From Myxococcota bacterium (GTDB lineage Bacteria; Myxococcota; JACRCW01): DNA of 13,408 bases. The position numbers and the translations under genes are program-made. A model generated the notes under the pieces. The model ran no database searches. It was not told the DNA's origin and was given only the letters and a program-made list of their open reading frames with translations. This document shows positions 1 through 11,388 of the stretch, in pieces. The first letter of the stretch is position 1, and every line of letters starts with the position of its first letter. Location: assembly GCA_040752415.1 (NCBI GenBank), contig JBFMGU010000286.1, positions 1 to 13,408 of the forward strand, read 5' to 3'.

Positions 1-99
1 GGCACGCTTGGGCTCAACTCGCCGGTGACGACGACGCTTCTTCAACTCCAGCCGGGACAGCCGGATACGCCAGATTTTGTCGATGCTGTCCAAAGCGGC

Positions 100-253
100 T
101 CGCCGCCCTGGCCAGCGCCGAGCGGGTAGCGCTCTCGTCAATGGTCGCGGGTTGTGGCGACGTCGGCGACCGTCGCCACCATGTCAGGGCCGTTCGACAC
201 ATTGAGAACGCACACGGCGCTGGCCAGGGCGGCGACAGGCCGCCGCACTCCAG
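100..253. repeat. REP/REPIN-like long inverted-repeat element
   Basis: Perfect 21-bp inverted repeat: TCGCCGCCCTGGCCAGCGCCG (100-120) and CGGCGCTGGCCAGGGCGGCGA (215-235). Inner 9-bp stem GTGGCGACG (154-162)/CGTCGCCAC (171-179). The right arm continues as GCGGCG-ACAGGC-CGCCGC-ACTCCA (229-252), resembling the GGAGTGCGGCG..CGCCGC type of REP palindrome. Confidence 0.6.
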
Positions 254-376
254 GTTGTGGTCCGGTGAGGCTGTCACGGACCCATGGGCAACCAACTCTG
301 GCGCAACCCCCTAAACGTGAACGGGAGCCGCTTCGCGGTGACATCCATCCCGATTGGAGCTCCCGAAGAACGACAC

Positions 377-2338
377 TCACGCCGTGGGCGCCAACGTCCC
401 TTCCGCCTTGGTGCGACACGAGATGCCGCCGCCGGCGCGCAGCGTGGTGCCCGTCATCTCCGGATCCAGCAGGTGCACGCGCGCAATCCCGGGATCCAGC
501 GCCTTGAGCGCGTCGACAAAGACGCGTTCCGCGCGCGGATCACCACCCAGCGCAATGTAGAAACGCTCACCCCTGGGATTGGTGCCCTGCTCGGCGTTGA
601 GGAAGTTCGCTACAGCCGCGTGCCCCTGCCCGAACACCGCCGGCGCGAGATGCACCTTGAGCCCCGCCGCTTCGAGGTCCTTCGCCACCAGCTTCTCGAA
701 TTTCGCGGAGCGTTCGGCGTGCTTCAGGTCGTCGGCGTGGCGCTGCACCATGTCCTTGCCGATGTCGCGCCAGAACTCCAGGTCGCTCTGGTACATCTCC
801 AGCTTGTCAGAGCTGGCGCCGGGCGGGGGCGGCCTGGGCTCCTTCTGGGCGTGGTCCTCGCGCTCCCATTGTGCCTGCAGCTTCGCGGCGGCCACGGCGT
901 CGTTGAGCAGGATCTCGCCGGGCTTGATGGGGACCATGTGCATGTCCAGGTGGAAGTCGCGGGGTTGCTCCACCGCGTGCACGTGTTCCGGCTTCACGCC
1001 CAGGTCATGCGCCACCGCGGCCTTCAGCTCGTCGTCGGTGACCTTGCGGCCCCGGTCCTTCTCGAGAATCCGTCGTGACACCGCCAGGGAGTCCCTCCCC
1101 ACCAGCGCGTAGCCCTCCCCGGAAGGAAGCGTGCCCACCAGCAGGTTCCCGCCCTCGATGTGCGTCAGCGACGCGCGGATGGTCGTACCCTTGGCCAGCG
1201 CCACCCCCGCCAGCACCTCGTGCGACTTGCGGTCCGACACCGCGCCCACCATCGAGAACACCGCGTCGGGGAACTTCTCGGCGATGGTCTCCCGCAGCTT
1301 GCTCCACGGCGTCTTGGCAATCTTCGCCGCCTGCTCGGGATACAGGCGCCCCACGCGGTCGCGGTAGGCGGCTTCCTGCAGCTCGTCGAGCTGGGGCGCG
1401 GGTGCAGGAACACGCACGTTGCCATCCACGTCCAGCTCACCCTGGTCCTCGCTCCAGAAGTCCCCCTCGCCGGCCACGCCCACGACGTGGATGTTGCGGA
1501 GGCCCTCCTCCTTGAACTGCTTGCGCAGCTCGTCCACGTATTCCACCGGCACCCGCAGCACCACGGTGAAACCTTCACGCTTCCCAATCTGCGCCATCTG
1601 TCGCGGATAGGTCAGCCCGGTCTGGTCCGCGCCGATCATCGCCATGTGGAACGCACGCACCTGGAGCGTTCCGTCCTCCGGAACCACGCGCGAGGTGGCC
1701 GGCGTCTCTCCGCTGCGCAGGAGCTTCTCCCGTTCCCGGGCCGCCTGCCCCAGCGCCTTCTCCAGGTCCGCGGCTTTCACGTCGTGGAGCGGAGCCATCT
1801 GGGGCGGGGCCACGGTGGCCAGGCCCGTGCGCGGCACCAGCACCCCACCCGCGCGACCCTCCAGCGCATAGGTGCGCAGCGGCTCCTTGGCGAGACGGGA
1901 TTGTCGCGCAGCGTCGGGGGCGCCCACCTCCGCGGTCAGGTGGCGCTCCGCCCCCGCGGTCATCTTCACGCCCACCATCAGCGCGCGCAGCGACGTCACC
2001 GTCTTCTTCCCATGGCCACCGTCGAGCAGCGCGGTGAGCTGGCGCGCGTCCTTGAGGTCGATGACGCCGTCCTTCCGCGTCAGCGCGTGCGCCAGCGCCG
2101 CCAGGCGGTCCTCCGGGATGGCCAGCAGGGTCTCCAGGCGCTTCCGCGTGCTGACCTCGTCAAACGCATCCGACTTCTGGTGCAGCAGGTGGTGCAGCGC
2201 GGTGCGCTCGGCGGGTGCCAGCTTCCCGTCGGCCAGCGCGGCGTCCAGCGCGCGGGTCACCGCCACGTCGTCAATGCGCGCGGCCGACTGCAGGCGCGAG
2301 AGCACGGCGTGGAGCGCGGGGCGCTGGAGGGTGGTCAT
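377..2338 (-). CDS. Pentein (amidinotransferase/deiminase) superfamily enzyme, protein-arginine-deiminase-like, with a helical N-terminal extension
   Basis: 653-aa ORF with GC3-biased codons. Ordered motifs FWSED (D298), HIEGGN, FHLD (H463/D465), NFLN and C-terminal GGGISCRT (C641) match the D/H/D/C catalytic set of penteins. No signal peptide. Confidence 0.8.
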   Translation of the reverse strand: MTTLQRPALHAVLSRLQSAARIDDVAVTRALDAALADGKLAPAERTALHHLLHQKSDAFDEVSTRKRLETLLAIPEDRLAALAHALTRKDGVIDLKDARQLTALLDGGHGKKTVTSLRALMVGVKMTAGAERHLTAEVGAPDAARQSRLAKEPLRTYALEGRAGGVLVPRTGLATVAPPQMAPLHDVKAADLEKALGQAAREREKLLRSGETPATSRVVPEDGTLQVRAFHMAMIGADQTGLTYPRQMAQIGKREGFTVVLRVPVEYVDELRKQFKEEGLRNIHVVGVAGEGDFWSEDQGELDVDGNVRVPAPAPQLDELQEAAYRDRVGRLYPEQAAKIAKTPWSKLRETIAEKFPDAVFSMVGAVSDRKSHEVLAGVALAKGTTIRASLTHIEGGNLLVGTLPSGEGYALVGRDSLAVSRRILEKDRGRKVTDDELKAAVAHDLGVKPEHVHAVEQPRDFHLDMHMVPIKPGEILLNDAVAAAKLQAQWEREDHAQKEPRPPPPGASSDKLEMYQSDLEFWRDIGKDMVQRHADDLKHAERSAKFEKLVAKDLEAAGLKVHLAPAVFGQGHAAVANFLNAEQGTNPRGERFYIALGGDPRAERVFVDALKALDPGIARVHLLDPEMTGTTLRAGGGISCRTKAEGTLAPTA

Positions 2339-2349
2339 GACGTCGCGCG

Positions 2350-2378
2350 ACGTTAGTGGCGTGGGCGTGAGCTGTCAC
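2350..2378 (-). promoter_or_regulatory. Putative sigma70-type promoter of the pentein gene
   Basis: Minus strand GTGACA (2378-2373)-N17-TAACGT (2355-2350), 11 nt before ATG 2338. It overlaps the perfect 14-bp palindrome ACGTCGCGCGACGT (2340-2353). Confidence 0.45.
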
Positions 2379-2449
2379 CGTCCCCACCCGGGTTGCGAGC
2401 CCAGGTCCGCGTTGCCGCACGGGGGCACACGCCCGCCCGCACCATCCCG

Positions 2450-2478
2450 GTGACGCCGCGCGCTGCTTCGCCTACGCT
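2450..2478 (+). promoter_or_regulatory. Putative sigma70-type promoter (leaderless) of the TPR gene
   Basis: GTGACG (2450-2455)-N17-TACGCT (2473-2478)-N7-GTG (2486). Confidence 0.5.
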
Positions 2479-2485
2479 ATGGCGC

Positions 2486-3202
2486 GTGAAGCTGGTGTGG
2501 CGGCAACCGGGGATTTCCCGTGCGCTCGTGGTGATGGCGCTCGTCGTGGACGGCGCGTCCGTTGTCAGCGCGCAGATCCCGCCGGGGAGCACCAACGGCA
2601 CCACCACACCGTCCGCCGGACCGCCCGCCGCCGCGGCGATGAACCGTTGCCTGCAGGCCTTCCACGTCGGGGACATGGCCGGTGCGCGTGCGGCGTGTGA
2701 GGAGGCGGCGCGGCTGGATCCCACCATGGTGGAGGCGCGTTACATGGCCGGGGTGGCCGCCGCCGCGCAGGGCGACACGTGCGCCGCGCGCGCCCACTAC
2801 GAGCTCGTGCTCCTGGCGCCCCTGTTGCACCCGCAGGTGGTGGCCATCCAGCAGGCCCTGGCCAGCGACGCGTTCCAGAACTGCGTGCGTGGCGTCGTGG
2901 CCGCGGCGCCGAGCCAGCCGGTGCTGCCGGCCCGGTCGACCCGGGACCTCGTGGCGCAGGCCACCGTGGCCTTCCGCAATGGTGACCTGGACCTGGCCGA
3001 GCGGCTGGCCACGCAGGCGGTTGTCGACGAGCCCAACGACGCGGGCGCCCACAAGCTGCTGGCCATCATCTACGTGCAGCGCGGCCTGAGCTGCGACGCC
3101 AAGGCGCATTACGTGGCGTTCCTGCGCCTGGACCCCGGCTCACCGCTGGTCCCGCGGGTGCGCCAGATCATTGCCCACCCGGACTTTGCCCACTGCCGAT
3201 GA
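2486..3202 (+). CDS. Secreted tetratricopeptide-repeat protein with two duplicated TPR modules
   Basis: Within ORF 2393-3202. Start reassigned to GTG 2486, which gives a signal-peptide-like N-terminus (KLVWRQ..RALVVMALVV..VVSA-Q). TPR-like helix pairs: AFHVGDMAGARAACEEAARLDP and AFRNGDLDLAERLATQAVVDEPNDAGAHKLLA. Confidence 0.75.
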   Translation: MKLVWRQPGISRALVVMALVVDGASVVSAQIPPGSTNGTTTPSAGPPAAAAMNRCLQAFHVGDMAGARAACEEAARLDPTMVEARYMAGVAAAAQGDTCAARAHYELVLLAPLLHPQVVAIQQALASDAFQNCVRGVVAAAPSQPVLPARSTRDLVAQATVAFRNGDLDLAERLATQAVVDEPNDAGAHKLLAIIYVQRGLSCDAKAHYVAFLRLDPGSPLVPRVRQIIAHPDFAHCR

Positions 3203-3331: not shown

Positions 3332-5206
3332 GTGACGAGCATCAGCCGGGCCCAGCGCCCCACCACCGCCCGCTCCCAGCTCCCCGACGAGGGCAACGTC
3401 CACACCGTGCAGGCGGGGGACACGCTCTGGGACATTGCCAGGAAGAACGGGGTGAGCCTGCCGGACCTCATTGCGGCCAACCCGCAGATTGCCAACCCGG
3501 ACCGCATCTATCCCGGCCAGACGGTGAACATCCCGGGCGGCAGTCCCAGCGCGCCCACGGCGCAGGCTCCGGCCGCGGAGGCCCCGGCCGCGGACCGCAC
3601 GCCCACGCGCATCCAGCCCAACGCCGACGGAACCTATCCGCGCGGTGGCACCGCCAAGCCCGCGCCGCAGGGTGGCGTGGACCCCGGGACCCTGCGCGTG
3701 CCGGGGGAGGAGAACGCGCCGCGCAACAGCGGTGGGCTCTCCGGCGTGGACCGCATCATCGACTACACCGCGCGCACGGAGGGTGGCGGCCGCTACGACG
3801 CGTGGAATCCCAACGACAACGGGCACGGCGTCTCCTACGGCCTCATCCAGTTCAACCAGAAGAGCGGATCGTTGCCCTCGCTGATGAACCGGATGGCGCA
3901 GGCCAACCCGGAGAAGTTCAACCAGATCATGGGGCCCTACGCGGACAACATGCGCAATGAGAGCTGGGTCCGCAGCGCCAACCTCAATGACCCGGACATC
4001 AAGGCCCGCATGCAGCAGGCGGCGCGCGACCCGGAGTTCCAGCAGGTGCAGCGCGACCTGGCGCGTGAGGGTTACTACGAGCCCGCGGCGCGCATGGCGC
4101 AGCAGCACGGCCTGACCAGCGAGCGCGCGCACGCGATGTTGTTCGACTCCTCGGTGCAGAACGGCGTGGGCGGGACGGAGCGCATGTTGCGCCAGGCCGC
4201 GGCCGGCGGCGGGAGCGAGCGTGAGATCCTGGATCGGTTTGCGCACCTGGCGGATGCCAACCGCTACAGCGGGAACCGTCGCACGCGCATCCTCAATGAC
4301 CCCAACCTCTCCGACGGGCCGGTGGGCAGCGCGCCGCCGCAGAACGGTGGCAACGCGGGCGGCACCACGGCGGCGGGAGGCACCACGGCACCGGGTGGCT
4401 CGACGGAGAACAGCAGATACGTGGTGCAGCCGGGAGACACGCTGAGCGGGATTGCCGCGCGTCACGGCACCACCTGGCAGGAGCTGCAGCAGCTCAACAA
4501 CATCCGCAATCCCAACCTCATCCACGCGGGCCAGGTGCTGCGGTTGCCGGGCGGGAGCAGCGCGTCGCCACCCGCGGGGAATGACCCACCGGCCGCGCCT
4601 CCGTCGGGGACGGGCAACGCGCCGCAGATCCAGCCGGGTCAGTTCGACGGGAGGACGCCCGCCAGCGGCACCACCGACCAGCGCGCGTGGCTGCCCGCGA
4701 ACCCCGCCGTCACCAACGGCGCGGACAACCGCAGCGCCAGCAACTACGCGGAGACCATCAACCAGTTCGCTGCGGGCAACAACCCGCGCTACACCCCGCG
4801 CGAGGGCAACACCTACTGCAACATCTTCACGTGGGACGTCACGCGGGCCATGGGCGCGGAGATTCCGCACTGGGTGGACCGCGCGGGCAACGCGGCCTCT
4901 CCGGGCGCGCCGGGCGCGCGCGAGCTCGACGCCAACGCCACCAACCACTGGCTGCACAACCACGGTGAGCGCAACGGGTGGCGTCGGGTGAGCGCGGAGG
5001 AGGCGCAGCAGATGGCCAACAGCGGTCACCCGGCCATTGCCAGCTGGAACAACCCCGGTGGCATCGGGCACATCGCCGTGGTGCGCCCGGGGGAGAACAC
5101 CGCCGCGGGCCCGGCGATTGCGAACGTGGGCGCGCGGAATTTCAATGAGGGCCACGTGCGCAACGGGTTTGGCAGCGCGCAGCCGGAGTACTGGGTGCAC
5201 GAATAG
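3332..5206 (+). CDS. LysM-containing peptidoglycan hydrolase: LysM - lysozyme-like glycosidase - LysM - CHAP/NlpC-P60-like cysteine hydrolase
   Basis: LysM1 [30 protein letters not shown] (~3401-3535). Lysozyme-fold motifs [14 protein letters not shown] (E150) and FDSSVQNG. LysM2 [27 protein letters not shown] (~4418-4549). C-terminal TYCNIF (C496) and GHIAVV (H580). Purine-rich AGGAAGG RBS before GTG 3332. Confidence 0.88.
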
Positions 5207-7342: not shown

Positions 7343-10312
7343 CTAACGCGCCTCCTCCGCGCCCAGCACCGTCGTGGGCTCCGGCTCGACGTACGGCCGC
7401 AGATACACCCAGCCGCTGGTCATGGTGGCCGAGTAGTAGTCCGTGTAGACCTCGCCGAAATACAGGTAGAGATCGTCGCCACTGGCCGGCGCCTTCACGC
7501 TGCTCCAGGGCACGGGCGTGGTGCGGGTGAGCTCCGCGCCGTTGGCGTCGGTCACCACCACCTGCCAGCTGGTGCCGGTGCTGTAGAGCTCCCAGACGTG
7601 GTCCTGGCCCAGCGGCAGCGTGGCAAACGAGGCGGAAGCACCCCAGGCGGAGCCGCTCCAGTAAATCGCCGCGTTGCTGGTGTTGACATAGAAGATGAAC
7701 GCGCGCCCGTCGTGGCGGTGGTAGGCCACCAGGCGTCGCCGCGGGTTCTCCGTCGACTGATTCGCCGTCTGCGGTGCCTGGTCCTCGCTCACCACGCCCA
7801 TCAGCTTGGCCTCCGGGCTCGCGGCGCCGGAGAGCGTCTGCACCCGCGCCTTGTGGCGGAAGTGGAATCCGCTCGTCGGCAGCGGGTCGGCCAATGCCAC
7901 CGTGAACGCGGCGCTGGTGGAGCCGTCCCCGGTCTGCACCAGCTCACCATTCACCACCTCGACGTTGGCGTTGTTGTCGTCGGTGACCAGGGTGCTGGAG
8001 AGGTTTGTGTCGGAGAAGTGGTCGCCGGCCAGGTAGAGGTTGTCCCAGGCCGCCGGTGGCGAGGTGGCGGTCGGGTTGCCGTAGTACACCCAGTACTCCA
8101 GCGCGGATTCGAACGGGTCGGGGTGGCTGCCCTGCAGGCGGAACTCCAGCCTCACGTCCGCGGTGTTCCACGCTTGCAGGCGCGAGCGGTCGCGGTCCAA
8201 CTCCTGCCAGCTGTTGCCGTCCCAGCGCACCACACGCACGTCGTCGCCGCTGGCCAGCGACTTCCCCGCCGTGACCAGGGCGGCATGGTCGAGGTCCACG
8301 GTGATCACGTACCGGTTGGGCAGGCCCACGGTGCTGGTGATGGTGACCGGCGCGCGGAAGGCGTAGGCCGGGTTCCACCAGTCCATGGCCGCTTCGTTCT
8401 CGGCGAACTCGGAGGTCTGCTCGCCCAGCGTGGCGGTGGCGGTCACCAGCGTGGGGATCTCCTCCTGCAACGCGAAGCTGCGCGTGAAGGTGAACAGCCC
8501 GGTGGTGTGCTGCAGCTGGCCCAGGTACGCGGCCGCTTCGCCGTGGTTGGTGCTGCCGTCGCCGGTGGCGGAGAAGAATTCCAGCAGCGCTCCGTCGGGC
8601 GCGGTGCCGTTCACGGTGATGGTGCGGTCCTCCACGAGGTAGCGCAGCAGCACCGGGTAGTCCGTCCATTCGTCGGTGGGGTTGTTGGGGGTGATGCCGT
8701 TGTTGTCCACGTCAATGCCGCGTGCGTAGTTGCCGGTGATGACGTTGCGACGCAGCATCACCGTGGCGCCGCCCAGCACCGAGACGCCATCCAGCCCATT
8801 GCTCTCCAGCGTGCTCTCCACGGCGGAATGTCCGGTCCCCGCGCCCACCAGCACGCCGTGGTGGCCGTTGAAGACCACCACGCAGTCCTCCAGGCGGTTC
8901 CGGCTCCCGCGCACGTGCACGCCGCTGCCGTTCACCGTCTCCGTCACGCTGACGCCGGAGAGCGTGCCGCGGTCACCCTCCAGCAGCACCGCGCCGTTGC
9001 CCTGCGGGCTCACCTGGCGCAACAGCAGGCTCAGGACGGCCACGCGTGCGCCGGTGACGTGCAGCAGGGGCCCGACGCTGGCGGAGCCACCCTGGATCTG
9101 CACCTCCAGGCCCCCGCTGGTGTCGCCCACGGTGAGCGTCTGGGTCTGACCGTCCAGCGTGGTGTCGTCGTCGCTGAGGGTGGGCAGCGGGCTCAGCGGG
9201 TAGAACGCGGCGTGGTCGCCGTTGAGGAACGCGGGGTCCGGGCTCAGGCCCAGGAAGGCGTTGTTGGGAACCTGGAACAGCGCGGCGTTGGGACCTGGGA
9301 GCGCGTTGGCGTTGAGGATGAACTGGCGCAGCGAGCCCTGGCCGCTGTCGGCGGTGTTCATGATCAGGTTGTAGGAGAACCCGAAGTCCACGCCAGACAC
9401 CGTCCCGCCCCCGACGACAACCTCCACGAACGTGTCTCCCCGGCCCAGCCCCGCCGGCGTGCTGTCGTCGGGATTCTGGGGATCCTCACCACCCAGCGCG
9501 CCGGCGGCGCCATTCCCGGTCACGCCGTCGTGCTCGTAGGTCTGCTCGGGGATGACGCCGGAGAGGCCGCGGTTGGCGGAAGCGGAGACCACACGCACCG
9601 AGTACGTGCCCGCCCCCTCCACCAGCAGCGCGTAACGACCGGCGCTGTCGGTCACGGTGCTGCCCCGGAGCGCGTTGGTGTCGTCGTAGAGCTCCACCGT
9701 GACGTCGGGAATGCCGGGATCCTGCGCGTCCTGCGCCGTGCCCGCGCCGCCCGTGTAGCCCACGTCCTCGAAGACCGTGCCGCTGATGGCGGTGCCGCCC
9801 GCGTCGGGAGGAGCGCCGGCGTCGGGGCGCGTGGCGTCGGGGCGGGCTGCGTCGGGGAGGGTGCCCGCGTCGGGGGACGGGCCCGCGTCCGGGGGAGCGG
9901 TGGCGTCGGGAAGCGCGGCGTCGGGGCGGGGCGGGGTGGCGTCGGGATGGGGGGCCGCGTCGGTGGGGAGGGCCGCGTCGGGGCGGGGAGTCACGCCCGC
10001 GTCCGACGGAACGGCGGCGTCGGGAGCAACGCTGGCGTCGGATCTGACCGTGGCGTCGGGCGGCAGCGCCGCGTCGCGCGGGGAGGCGGCGTCAGGGGGC
10101 CCGTTCTCGTCGATGATGACGGCCGCGTCCGGCGGAACGGTGCCTTCCTCCACGCACGTGCCGAACTGGTCGTCGGGAGAGACGCGGACGCACTGGTAGC
10201 CGCCGGAGCAGTCGTCCGGGGTCTCGCAGCGGTAGGACACGGCGTTGCACGCGGAACAGGCCGCTGCCGTCAGCAGCAACACGGTGGACCACGCTGCGCG
10301 CCGGGGGGCCAT
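7343..10312 (-). CDS. Large multidomain surface lipoprotein (Cys module, PD(A)x linker, SdrD-B-like Ig domain, right-handed beta-helix, DUF2341-like domain)
   Basis: Start reassigned to ATG 10312 (MAPRRAAWSTVLLLTAAAC lipoprotein-type signal). ISGTVFED..GIPDVTVELYD..TDSAGRY is SdrD-B/Cna-B-like. NTADSGQGSLRQFILNAN plus N..HGV/N..DGV repeats suggest a beta-helix. WWNPAYAFRAPVTI..GDDVRVV..YWVYYGNP is DUF2341-like. Confidence 0.8.
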   Translation of the reverse strand: MAPRRAAWSTVLLLTAAACSACNAVSYRCETPDDCSGGYQCVRVSPDDQFGTCVEEGTVPPDAAVIIDENGPPDAASPRDAALPPDATVRSDASVAPDAAVPSDAGVTPRPDAALPTDAAPHPDATPPRPDAALPDATAPPDAGPSPDAGTLPDAARPDATRPDAGAPPDAGGTAISGTVFEDVGYTGGAGTAQDAQDPGIPDVTVELYDDTNALRGSTVTDSAGRYALLVEGAGTYSVRVVSASANRGLSGVIPEQTYEHDGVTGNGAAGALGGEDPQNPDDSTPAGLGRGDTFVEVVVGGGTVSGVDFGFSYNLIMNTADSGQGSLRQFILNANALPGPNAALFQVPNNAFLGLSPDPAFLNGDHAAFYPLSPLPTLSDDDTTLDGQTQTLTVGDTSGGLEVQIQGGSASVGPLLHVTGARVAVLSLLLRQVSPQGNGAVLLEGDRGTLSGVSVTETVNGSGVHVRGSRNRLEDCVVVFNGHHGVLVGAGTGHSAVESTLESNGLDGVSVLGGATVMLRRNVITGNYARGIDVDNNGITPNNPTDEWTDYPVLLRYLVEDRTITVNGTAPDGALLEFFSATGDGSTNHGEAAAYLGQLQHTTGLFTFTRSFALQEEIPTLVTATATLGEQTSEFAENEAAMDWWNPAYAFRAPVTITSTVGLPNRYVITVDLDHAALVTAGKSLASGDDVRVVRWDGNSWQELDRDRSRLQAWNTADVRLEFRLQGSHPDPFESALEYWVYYGNPTATSPPAAWDNLYLAGDHFSDTNLSSTLVTDDNNANVEVVNGELVQTGDGSTSAAFTVALADPLPTSGFHFRHKARVQTLSGAASPEAKLMGVVSEDQAPQTANQSTENPRRRLVAYHRHDGRAFIFYVNTSNAAIYWSGSAWGASASFATLPLGQDHVWELYSTGTSWQVVVTDANGAELTRTTPVPWSSVKAPASGDDLYLYFGEVYTDYYSATMTSGWVYLRPYVEPEPTTVLGAEEAR
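9800..10132 (-). repeat. Coding low-complexity PD(A)x repeat linker
   Basis: Many GCGTC-containing units encoding PDAA/PDAT/PDAG-type repeats between the Cys module and the Ig-like domain. Confidence 0.8.
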
Positions 10313-10319
10313 GCGGCAG

Positions 10320-10348
10320 AGTCTAACACGCGAGCCGCGGGGTGACGA
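10320..10348 (-). promoter_or_regulatory. Putative extended -10 promoter (leaderless) of the large lipoprotein gene
   Basis: Minus strand TCGTCA (10348-10343)-N17-TAGACT (10325-10320), with TG at 10328-10327, then N7-ATG (10312). Confidence 0.55.
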
Positions 10349-10380
10349 CGACGAGGCGGGGCCGGCGCGTGGGGCGCGGC

Positions 10381-10410
10381 CTGACGCTGATAGTATCATG
10401 TGATACTATC
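10381..10410 (+). promoter_or_regulatory. fic promoter overlapped by a perfect palindromic operator
   Basis: CTGACG (10381-10386)-N17-TACTAT (10404-10409) with extended TG, then N7-GTG 10417. Inverted repeat GATAGTATCA-tg-TGATACTATC (10389-10410) is strikingly AT-rich for this window. Confidence 0.7.
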
Positions 10411-10416
10411 GGGATC

Positions 10417-11388
10417 GTGCGTCCCCCCTTCGAGGTCACGGAACGTTCGCGTGGGCTTCTCCTGGTCCTGGAGCGACTCCTCGGGCGGTACGAGGGCATG
10501 CACCAACCGCGCCCCGCGCCCAGGTTGCGGCGCTCGCTCCGGGTGAAGACCGTCCACGGCAGCGTGGCCATCGAGGGCAACACGCTGACCGAAGACCAGG
10601 TGACGGCGGTGCTGGAAGGCAGGCGTGTCGTGGCTCCCCGACGGGACATCGTCGAGGTCCAGAACGCGCTCAAGGCGTACGAGCGACTTCCGGAATGGGC
10701 GCCCACTTCCACCGACCATCTGCTCGCCGCCCATTCAGCACTCATGACGGGATTGCTGGAGAGCGCCGGGCATTGGCGGCGCGGCGGCGTCGGCGTGATG
10801 AAGGGAAAGCAGATTGCTCACATTGCGCCGCCCGCAAAGCGGGTTCCGGGACTGGTGGCGGAGCTCCTGGCATACCTGGAGCGCGACATCGCCAACCATC
10901 CCGCCGTGCTGGCCGCGGTGATTCACCACGAGTTGGAGTTCATCCATCCCTTTGACGACGGCAACGGACGCATCGGCCGCCTGTGGCACACGTTGATCCT
11001 GAGCCGCTACCACCCGCTGTTCGCGTTCGTGCCGGTGGAGTCGGTGATCCGTGAGCGTCAATCCGCGTATTACGACGCCCTCGAGGCGAGTGACCGCGCA
11101 GGAAGCTCCACCGTCTTCATCGAGTTCGCCCTGGAGGCAACGTGCGACGCCGTGGAGAAGACGCTGGGCGCGGTGTCCCGTGGACCGGTGACGCCGGAGC
11201 AGCGCCTCGACGTCGCGGCCGAGCAACTGGGAACCCGACTGTTCTCGCGCAAGGAGTACCAGGCGCTGTTTCCCGGCCTGTCAACCGCCACGGCAAGTCG
11301 CGACCTGCGCCAGGGTGTGGACGCACAGCGCCTGCGGCGGACCGGGGACAAGGCCTTGGCGCGTTATGCCTTCGTGAAACGCCGCTAA
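10417..11388 (+). CDS. Fic family protein (class II) with C-terminal winged HTH
   Basis: Canonical Fic motif HPFDDGNGRIGR and N-terminal inhibitory motif SVAIEGN. C-terminal FSRKEYQALFPGLSTATASRDLRQGV..L.RTGD is wHTH-like. Start reassigned to GTG 10417 (RPPFEVT). Confidence 0.93.
   Translation: MRPPFEVTERSRGLLLVLERLLGRYEGMHQPRPAPRLRRSLRVKTVHGSVAIEGNTLTEDQVTAVLEGRRVVAPRRDIVEVQNALKAYERLPEWAPTSTDHLLAAHSALMTGLLESAGHWRRGGVGVMKGKQIAHIAPPAKRVPGLVAELLAYLERDIANHPAVLAAVIHHELEFIHPFDDGNGRIGRLWHTLILSRYHPLFAFVPVESVIRERQSAYYDALEASDRAGSSTVFIEFALEATCDAVEKTLGAVSRGPVTPEQRLDVAAEQLGTRLFSRKEYQALFPGLSTATASRDLRQGVDAQRLRRTGDKALARYAFVKRR

Follow-up and report, generated by a model that had tools for sequence, protein, structure and literature searches.

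A two-module pentein-fold protein from Myxococcota as a candidate protein-arginine deiminase with effector-type relatives

Our analysis indicates that the gene studied here, part of a 13,408-nucleotide stretch of Myxococcota DNA (the window), encodes a two-module protein, and we give roughly even credence to the view that its helical N-terminal module (NTD, about 135 aa) and pentein domain (about 440 aa) together make up a protein-arginine deiminase serving as an effector or toxin warhead. As one part of that explanation, and with the same evenly balanced confidence, the family would branch nearest to the agmatine deiminase/Porphyromonas-PPAD type and was previously unannotated. By predicted fold and aligned catalytic residues, the window protein is a member of the pentein, or guanidino-group-modifying, superfamily, and the domain partners found in its relatives point to a role directed at other cells and not to metabolism. 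The family is of note for its size and lack of annotation, for its preserved catalytic residues and for domain partners of the toxin type.

The gene product of 653 aa is encoded with a GC3 of 0.90, similar to that of the adjoining genes, and alignments place the start codon at the same position in orthologues (Table 1). No Sec-type signal peptide is evident in the window protein, and a promoter and terminator scan of window positions 1-2800 returned no sites. The range 377-1700, which the first-pass annotation had described as a PAD-like domain, corresponds to the C-terminal domain (residues ~213-653), and the N-terminal extension of about 220 aa that it reported is real, with 221 residues preceding D222. 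The C-terminal half of the connecting region ('LRTY...') is semi-conserved in many family members, where it precedes the catalytic domain, and the catalytic domain itself carries two family-specific helical insertions (residues ~317-383 and ~481-557).

Table 1. Features of the gene and its product, in window coordinates
Feature	Residues	Position	Strand	Basis or assignment
Whole gene, 653 codons + stop	1-653	377..2338	(-)	ORF list and translation; ATG at 2338
NTD, N-terminal helical module	1-135	1934..2338	(-)	alignment; two 'DG-x-(I/L)...E/D' motifs
Connecting region	136-212	1703..1933	(-)	alignments
Pentein-fold catalytic domain	213-653	380..1702	(-)	
DFWSEDQGE	293-301	1436..1462	(-)	script-located; conservation; profile-aligned to agmatine deiminase 'DIWLRD'
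D298	298	1445-1447	(-)	candidate guanidinium-binding Asp; counterpart is the Asp of agmatine deiminase 'W-x-R-D'
Arg pair R328 + R331	328, 331	1346..1357	(-)	nearly invariant; 30-33 residues past D298
EGGN	395-398	1145..1156	(-)	E395 invariant; profile-aligned to agmatine deiminase 'EGGS'
FHLD	462-465	944..955	(-)	conservation; profile-aligned to agmatine deiminase 'GHID'; H463 candidate general base, D465 candidate second guanidinium-binding Asp
NFLN	578-581	596..607	(-)	N578 and N581 nearly invariant; profile-aligned to agmatine deiminase 'SYVN'
GGISC	637-641	416..430	(-)	conservation; profile-aligned to agmatine deiminase 'GGAFHC'
C641	641	416-418		candidate nucleophile

The five motifs listed by the first-pass annotation were all located, in order, by script, which also returned the same His-Cys spacing of 178 and placed C641 12 residues short of the C-terminus. 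In the profile alignment, C641, H463, D465 and D298 match the catalytic motifs of agmatine deiminase. Across a 131-sequence alignment no substitution occurs at D298, E395, G397, G414 or H463, and conservation is 90% or higher at D465, D416, D480, N581 and C641, so the motif set is not a product of chance. The full D/E/D/H/D/D/N/C set occurs in 126 of the 131 rows, the position of C641 is a Cys in 130 (the sole exception being a truncated sequence), and the catalytic Cys lies no more than 43 residues from the C-terminus in 128. As far as sequence can suggest, R328 and R331 might touch the backbone or the carboxylate of the substrate, and they could conceivably correspond to the Arg pairs seen in PPAD and PAD4.

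The predicted structure contains the five-fold beta-beta-alpha-beta propeller of the pentein fold, as the first reading of the sequence had anticipated. Its top structural matches were agmatine deiminases, tied with PPAD (5ak7, 4yt9 and 6i0x), and structure-based identity to the agmatine deiminases (1xkn, 2ewo, 3hvm, 3h7k) was 14-19%. That the best matches include small-molecule enzymes is an observation that runs against our preferred explanation. The agmatine deiminase HMM PF04371 did not match the window protein at E<=1, and the best of the 74 relatives scanned, a single sequence at 24.4 bits, fell below the Pfam gathering cut-off of 25 bits; a profile-profile comparison of PF04371 with the family (hhalign, built from BLAST-verified ORFs) gave an E of 2.5e-5 and a probability of 75%. 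On these results we regard the family as a distant sister of PF04371 and not a member by the Pfam criterion. Searches of Pfam, NCBIfam and PDB (phmmer and profile) assigned no family to the window protein, and neither PADLOC nor tblastn against plasmids and phages returned a match to it.

The family comprises 402 representatives at 50% identity, which are annotated only as 'hypothetical protein' and go undetected by Pfam and NCBIfam. It is found in Myxococcota, Vulcanimicrobiota/Xenobia, Bdellovibrionota and Chlamydiota, lineages that include predators and intracellular symbionts. Among the named records with a member are Lentzea pudingi, Lentzea sp. HUAS TT2, Leptolyngbya cf. ectocarpi and the Winogradskyella genome described below. 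As judged by record prefixes, some members occur as three to five paralogues in a single genome; the pentein domain is single-copy in the genome that contains the window, and the family is absent from the sole other genome of the same taxonomic family. The length of the N-terminal extension varies from 0 to 1294 aa across the 131 rows. Using Pfam on 74 of these rows (subsets of 30 and 44 selected on overall length or on the length of the N-terminal extension), we found eCIS_core (DUF4157) fused in six members and PAAR in one. In a quick LG+G4 tree, which excluded loci with a family ORF of <400 aa as well as L003, L004, L014, L027, L040, L043 and L054, where the GC3-based picker called no matching ORF, all six eCIS_core-fused members belong to a clade of 16 rows (SH-aLRT 99). 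The window protein lies in a separate clade of 62 rows, an arrangement that counts against the preferred explanation, and the sole fused member on its side of the tree is the PAAR-fused one.

The Winogradskyella homologue (L036) lies directly 3' of three eCIS_core genes at the end of an eCIS toxin array, with a sheath gene about 30 kb away on the same strand. The published survey of such systems describes eCIS toxins as typically having DUF4157 at the N-terminal end and a toxin domain at the other (PMC8213781), and in its supplementary file 4 PAD_porph appears among the entries enriched in eCIS operons (odds ratio 6.4, FDR 4.6e-5, 12 genes). Neither eCIS_core nor Phage_sheath_1 matched in the window's own genome (against 3 and 1 matches in the positive control, G081), nor was TssC/VipB found there. 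Type-VI delivery was rejected as a candidate, VipB/TssC being found in 0 of 5 genomes. FHIPEP was present in all five genomes tested, with two copies in the window's own; type-III delivery is unsupported, one copy lying beside flagellin on the flagellin contig and the other being an orphan beside ParE, a kinase and a TPR protein, with no type-III neighbours. Since the genome gave no match to eCIS_core, sheath or TssC, and its FHIPEP copies lie beside flagellin or stand as an orphan, no delivery route was identified. The earlier proposal of a protein-modifying deiminase or effector is supported in part.

The neighbours in the window encode TPR, LysM/GH46-like, Cys-rich, RecR, TerC, beta-helix, Fic and FtsK proteins, a list that agrees with the earlier observation that no arcB-, arcC- or aguB-like gene is present. 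Synteny is absent even with the closest homologue (62% identical), and no conserved operon was found across 75 loci. GGDEF/EAL neighbours in Vulcanimicrobiota, considered as a possible operon, seem to be synteny inherited by closely related genomes. Nothing resembling an immunity gene can be seen next to the window gene, with just 376 bases downstream before the contig ends, and no small neighbour is conserved across the Myxococcota and Vulcanimicrobiota loci; a conserved neighbour of about 105 aa is restricted to a Chlamydiota/Verrucomicrobiota clade.

The NTD is re-used extensively, with eight matches in the window's own genome and seven in that of its closest relative. P0163 resembles the window protein in the NTD only (38% identity, E 1e-16), and the paralogue types are likewise alike within this module alone, which is common to at least six other architectures whose remaining parts are unrelated. 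TGase_elicitor and DUF6209 are among its partner domains in the genome. A word-based search with residues 1-200 returned P0002 as the sole match. Against Pfam the NTD gave only weak, sub-threshold matches (Mu-like_Pro, YmfL, DUF533, SHOCT), and a part-search of the Atlas found no usable feature match and only structure rows with TM<0.5, TerB among these.

If our preferred explanation is right, C641 would attack the guanidino carbon to form a covalent S-alkylthiouronium intermediate with subsequent release of ammonia, and hydrolysis would then yield the ureido product, completing deimination. The substrate would be arginine in a protein or peptide, not free agmatine or arginine, and the protein would act as one 'warhead' of a modular effector/toxin repertoire, either in another cell or in a compartment beyond the producer's cytoplasm. 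This view draws on the eCIS_core and PAAR fusions, the eCIS array at L036, the position of the catalytic Cys near the C-terminus behind N-terminal regions of varied length, the multiple paralogues, the patchy spread, the missing synteny and conserved operon, the re-use of the NTD and the lack of a metabolic partner. The genome's lack of matches to delivery systems, the lack of a visible immunity-like neighbour and the housekeeping neighbourhoods of a cyanobacterial sub-clade weigh against it. More tentatively, and as something we consider possible rather than probable, the window protein could be the founding member of a family of injected or delivered protein-citrullinating toxins whose warhead is swapped among eCIS (DUF4157), PAAR-spike and other carriers, with the NTD as a marker or activation module. 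In such toxins the NTD would be a new, lineage-specific module shared with transglutaminase-like and other protein-modifying warheads, and arginine charges would be erased on an essential protein; because no enzyme is known to reverse arginine deimination, the target cell would be killed or reprogrammed. The missing immunity gene could be accounted for in this toxin proposal if the enzyme is inactive inside the producer and is switched on only by a trigger such as Ca2+ or a target factor.

The similarity to agmatine deiminases, which top the structural matches, also fits a cytoplasmic enzyme that hydrolyses small guanidino compounds, whether agmatine, free arginine or some other guanidino metabolite, in nitrogen or polyamine metabolism, a non-orthologous stand-in for the canonical agmatine deiminase. 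PF04371 has no match in the window's own genome, whereas 36 of the 81 genomes sampled from the phylum have one; a signal-peptide-like N-terminus occurs in just 5 of 116 complete members; and the cyanobacterial sub-clade is without extensions and set in stable, conserved housekeeping neighbourhoods. We nevertheless judge such an enzyme unlikely, as there are no arc or agu genes nearby and the best aguB (TIGR03381) hit in the genome, which is 96.8% complete, reaches 244 bits against a cut-off of 410. The patchy spread of the family (13 of the 151 genomes sampled from the phylum), its multiple paralogues in some genomes, the eCIS_core and PAAR fusions, the helical insertions of about 130 residues missing in agmatine deiminases, and an NTD that also occurs on a transglutaminase-like protein and in further non-metabolic architectures all speak against it as well.

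In some paralogues the NTD sits internally or at the C-terminus, a placement as compatible with regulation or an adaptor function as with delivery, and one reason to consider an endogenous protein-arginine deiminase that regulates the producer's own proteins, with the NTD as a regulatory or partner-binding module, possibly Ca2+-responsive. No secretion system or immunity gene is tied to the window gene, a transglutaminase-type domain is among the NTD partners, and true PAD homologues are common in the phylum (34 of 151 genomes), all of which favour this idea. EF-hand matches in the P0163-type paralogues would also do so, yet at E 0.05-5 they are below any threshold and not significant. Patchy occurrence without synteny would be unusual for a core regulator, and fusion of the catalytic domain to eCIS_core or PAAR in relatives, with one homologue in an eCIS toxin array, further leads us to consider endogenous regulation improbable. 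A different chemistry, that of an amidinotransferase or a dihydrolase, or a catalytically dead binding module is very improbable: the closest proteins by structure and by profile are deiminases, and the near-universal Cys, His and both Asp over the 131 sequences argue for an active enzyme.

So far, protein citrullination in bacteria has been linked chiefly to PPAD, which Porphyromonas secretes. It is also reported for PF03068 homologues (PMC8826395). An injected or polymorphic-toxin deiminase was not described in the papers searched, full-text searches included, and the word 'deiminase' occurs 0 times in the main texts of PMC8213781, PMC11297309 and PMC3482391. If the substrate is protein arginine, an irreversible, charge-erasing modification would be added to the known inter-cellular effector repertoire and new deiminases would become available as tools; if it is a small molecule, the family would still be a new pentein sub-family deserving a Pfam entry.

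Compared with known systems, the window protein shares the pentein fold and a predicted Cys-His-Asp chemistry with ADI (of the arc operon), DDAH and the amidinotransferases, with neither arcB/arcC linkage nor closest similarity to ADI being found. With eukaryote-type PAD (PF03068; PAD4, PADI6 and bacterial homologues) it shares the superfamily and the order of catalytic residues, and its His-Cys spacing is close to the 174 of PAD4. The PF03068 catalytic HMM with PAD_N/PAD_M did not identify the window protein. PPAD-like proteins in the Atlas clusters combine a Sec signal with an Ig-like domain and with a T9SS C-terminal domain (Por_Secre_tail), whereas the window protein has none of these. It differs from agmatine deiminase (PF04371) in about 130 extra residues in its family, present as the two helical insertions, in having W-S-E-D where agmatine deiminase has W-x-R-D and S-C in place of H-C, in its 212-aa N-terminal extension, in being without an aguB partner, and in having relatives fused to eCIS_core or PAAR. 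The window protein itself, unlike the eCIS toxins treated in Geller et al. 2021 (PMC8213781), is without eCIS_core, and on the matches in its genome it does not qualify as an eCIS-associated toxin, a class to which 6 of the 74 scanned relatives and L036 do belong; like those toxins, the six relatives have eCIS_core N-terminally and the deiminase-fold domain C-terminally. The arrangement that marks polymorphic toxins (sensu Zhang et al. 2012), a C-terminal toxin domain on variable or shared N-termini, was found.

The 653 amino acids of the window protein are encoded by the minus-strand ORF 377-2338 in GC-rich DNA (about 0.67-0.74 in 1-kb windows), and the range 377-1700, which the first-pass annotation had described as a PAD-like deiminase, corresponds to its C-terminal domain. 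A script run on the translation recovered every motif and residue number given there (see the table), together with the His-Cys spacing of 178 and the 12 residues that follow the Cys. The reported absence of arc and agu neighbours also holds, as none occurs among the window's other genes, which encode TPR, LysM/GH46-like, Cys-rich, RecR, TerC, 1018-aa beta-helix, Fic and FtsK proteins. The LysM/GH46-like product (3332-5206, plus strand; 624 aa) has two LysM domains and one GH46-like (chitosanase/lysozyme-like) domain, is weakly similar to the VgrG3 (T6SS spike) C-terminal domain (E 2.8e-5) and may be a cell-wall-degrading enzyme. The 1018-aa protein (7343-10399, minus strand), with long Pro/Asp/Ala-rich repeats ('PDA...'), an SdrD_B-like domain and a right-handed beta-helix, is probably secreted or surface-exposed. 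Between its gene and that of FtsK sits the Fic gene (10342-11388, plus strand), whose product matches the PADLOC model SoFic (E 3.7e-43) and is a candidate anti-phage defence protein.

Active-site motifs of the window protein
Motif	Residues	Strand	Basis
DFWSEDQGE	293-301 (D298)	-	script location
EGGN	395-398	-	script location
FHLD	462-465 (H463, D465)	-	script location
NFLN	578-581	-	script location
GGISC	637-641 (C641)	-	script location

The window protein belongs to a new family that lacks annotation, and its pentein active site is complete. Its only Pfam and NCBIfam matches are insignificant ones in the N-terminus. Neither the protein itself nor a 76-sequence profile retrieved a PDB sequence below E 0.4, and the public names of homologues are 'hypothetical protein' throughout. 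A word-indexed search yielded 18 relatives, and an HMMER search of all 1.84 billion cluster representatives yielded 402 at E<=1e-3, of which 123 reach E<=1e-30; almost all cover query residues ~210-650. In a 131-sequence alignment D298, E395, G397, G414 and H463 are invariant, and D465, D416, D480, N581 and C641, among others, are at least 90% conserved. The whole D/E/D/H/D/D/N/C set is kept in 126 of the 131 rows, the exceptions being four rows with one or two substitutions each and one truncated sequence that lacks the Cys column; conservation at this level across the family excludes chance.

AlphaFold2 modelled residues 213-653 with the 76-sequence alignment at a mean pLDDT of 95.9 and a pTM of 0.93. 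Foldseek found 163 PDB matches to this model at E<=1e-3, led by agmatine deiminases (3h7k at 5.7e-11; also 2ewo, 6nib, 1xkn, 6b10 and 2jer) and followed by PPAD (6i0x, 6.3e-8) and then mammalian PAD3, PAD1 and PAD4 (1e-7 to 1e-6). In structural comparison the top four scores (1xkn, 27.4; 2ewo, 27.3; the PPAD structure 5ak7, 26.8; 3hvm, 26.1) count as tied under the tool's criterion, which leaves agmatine deiminase and PPAD indistinguishable as nearest fold; PADI6 (21.0), DDAH-1 (20.7), ArgZ (18.3), ADI (1s9r, 17.9), AGAT (17.8) and AstB (16.2) come next, and no unrelated fold reaches 8.5. Of the 441 catalytic-domain residues, about 130 fall outside the structural alignment, in helical insertions that the model's secondary structure puts at ~317-383 and ~481-557, the second containing a 48-residue helix.

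Sequence profiles were compared by hhalign with 20 PF04371-type genes from genomes of the window's phylum, their ORFs chosen by BLAST. The family aligned with these at a probability of 75% and E 2.5e-5 (304 columns in greedy mode, 162 in default mode), pairing DFWSED with DIWLRD, EGGN with EGGS, FHLD with GHID, NFLN with SYVN and GGISC with GGAFHC of the agmatine deiminase type. Against 15 eukaryote-type PAD (PF03068) genes gathered by the same procedure the values were 1.8% and E 0.028, and as a yardstick the agmatine deiminase and PAD profiles matched each other at E 0.044. These results, together with the 24.4 bits that the family member P0053 scores on PF04371 (cut-off 25), indicate at the level of sequence that the family is a distant sister of the agmatine deiminase/PPAD type and not of eukaryote-type PADs. 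The PAD-like domain seen in the first-pass annotation is confirmed as a complete pentein active site, nearest to agmatine deiminase/PPAD and not to PAD4, and the interpretation given there finds partial support.

The catalytic Cys is at most 43 residues from the C-terminus in 128 of the 131 rows, and N-terminal extensions span 0 to 1294 aa. A Pfam scan of 74 members, 30 picked for total length and 44 for extensions of at least ~120 aa, revealed an N-terminal eCIS_core domain (PF13699, formerly DUF4157) in six and a PAAR motif in one, with no significant partner domain in the others scanned. As described in PMC8213781, DUF4157 at the N-terminus and a toxin domain at the C-terminus is the typical layout of eCIS-associated toxins, which tend to occupy the 3' end of an eCIS operon. 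At locus L036 in Winogradskyella, three genes that each have eCIS_core precede the homologue, and a Phage_sheath_1 gene lies ~30 kb upstream on the same strand. Supplementary file 4 of the same study records an enrichment of PAD_porph among eCIS operons (odds ratio 6.4, FDR 4.6e-5, 12 genes, 2 phyla) and gives Amidinotransf an odds ratio of 3.3.

The N-terminal module of the window protein has carriers of its own. A profile of residues 1-135 from six orthologues gave eight matches in the window's genome, where the catalytic domain is single-copy, and seven in the closest relative's. It also matched P0163 (748 aa), which has the module alone in common with the window protein (38% identity, E 1e-16); beyond the module lie a proline-rich linker and ~580 unrelated residues. 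Elsewhere in the window's genome the module is joined to DUF6209 (PF19714, E 8.3e-13; L114:887-2647:+) and to TGase_elicitor (PF16683, transglutaminase-elicitor, E 5.6e-14; L117:1601-3691:+); other carriers are two P0163-like proteins, two with no Pfam match elsewhere and one contig-end fragment. Since pairwise similarity between carrier types is limited to the module, and the module can lie away from the N-terminus (~160-295 in one open frame, 682-770 in another), it is a mobile adaptor, targeting or regulatory module common to several putative protein-modifying enzymes. The P0163-type paralogues in the window's genome (L112:2098-4545:- and L113:1087-3624:+) share the module and have sub-threshold EF-hand matches (E 0.05-5). 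The ~580-aa C-terminal part of this type has no Pfam or PDB sequence match and shows a 'GHS ... hydrophobic strand ... C' pattern, which we take to resemble the His/Cys dyad of caspase-fold peptidases.

We give an even chance to the window protein being a modular-effector deiminase. Judged by its conserved residues and by the established chemistry of the superfamily, it would deiminate through a Cys thiouronium intermediate; it is domain context that suggests a protein substrate and delivery to another cell. A small-molecule hydrolase seems improbable to us: PF04371, matched in 36 of 81 sampled genomes of the phylum, has no match in the window's own, so the window protein could in principle replace agmatine deiminase, but the highest-scoring aguB candidate there reaches 244 bits where the cut-off is 410, and the patchy, paralogue-rich, fusion-prone pattern is unlike that of a pathway enzyme. 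We also doubt that it is an endogenous regulatory deiminase. A one-genome-per-species scan found 132 relatives, and the best 80 of these 132 loci carry the labels Myxococcota, Vulcanimicrobiota/Eremiobacterota/Xenobia, Burkholderiales MAGs, Chlamydiota, Verrucomicrobiota, Bdellovibrionota, Cyanobacteria, Lentzea and Winogradskyella, with three to five copies in single assemblies by record prefix. Within the window's phylum the family occurs at E<=1e-10 in 13 of 151 sampled genomes, the window's own included, and is absent from the sole other sampled genome of its taxonomic family. Neighbour clustering of 75 loci plus the window revealed no conserved operon, and the genes flanking the closest homologue (L002, 62% identity) are unrelated to the window's.

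The effector reading has to be set against the tree (quick LG+G4, 78 rows, with a tool warning of long branches). A 16-row clade (SH-aLRT 99) unites the six eCIS_core-fused members with sequences from Winogradskyella, cyanobacteria and Lentzea. The window protein falls in the other, 62-row clade, within an 11-row Myxococcota-labelled group (98); of the fusions, only the PAAR-bearing member is in the 62-row clade. Members of the cyanobacterial sub-clade are surrounded by housekeeping genes, and a crude hydrophobicity test found a signal-peptide-like N-terminus in only 5 of 116 complete members. In the window's genome (11.0 Mb in 520 contigs, completeness 96.8%) there was no match to eCIS_core, Phage_sheath_1 or VipB, and its two FHIPEP genes are one flagellar, with flagellin on the same contig, and one orphan, so no delivery route can be named for the window protein. 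The orphan (G000:C138:1936-4110, locus L119) is full-length and FlhA/SctV-type, with no other export-apparatus genes within 16 kb, and adjoins ParE toxin, Ser/Thr kinase and TPR genes. No immunity-like gene was seen near the window gene, which has 376 bases downstream to the contig end. In the Chlamydiota/Verrucomicrobiota clade (L055-L064, L067 and L069) the deiminase-fold gene always lies beside a conserved, mostly basic protein of ~100-120 aa without a Pfam match (10 sequences aligned; for example L059:11203-11523:+), encoded downstream on the same strand or upstream and divergent. This neighbour, which could be an inhibitor, immunity protein or chaperone, was found once in the verrucomicrobial genome tested and not in the window's genome or three relatives.

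What is new here is a diverged pentein deiminase domain that eCIS, PAAR and other carriers bear as a putative C-terminal warhead. Such a toxin is undescribed in our full-text literature searches and in the covered parts of PMC8213781 (its supplement in part), PMC11297309 and PMC3482391, its sole trace being the statistical PAD_porph listing in the PMC8213781 supplementary table; deiminases go unmentioned in the main text of PMC8213781, in that of PMC11297309 and in the first 300,000 characters of the polymorphic-toxin survey PMC3482391. A true PF03068 homologue is also present in the window's genome (G000:C68:15748-16923, plus strand, locus L126; 276 bits, 623-aa open frame), with a lipoprotein-like N-terminus and the motifs WAQD, GHVDE and GEVHC, and 34 of the phylum's 151 sampled genomes match PF03068. 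The catalytic logic of the new family is common to both the agmatine deiminase/PPAD type and the eukaryote-type PADs.
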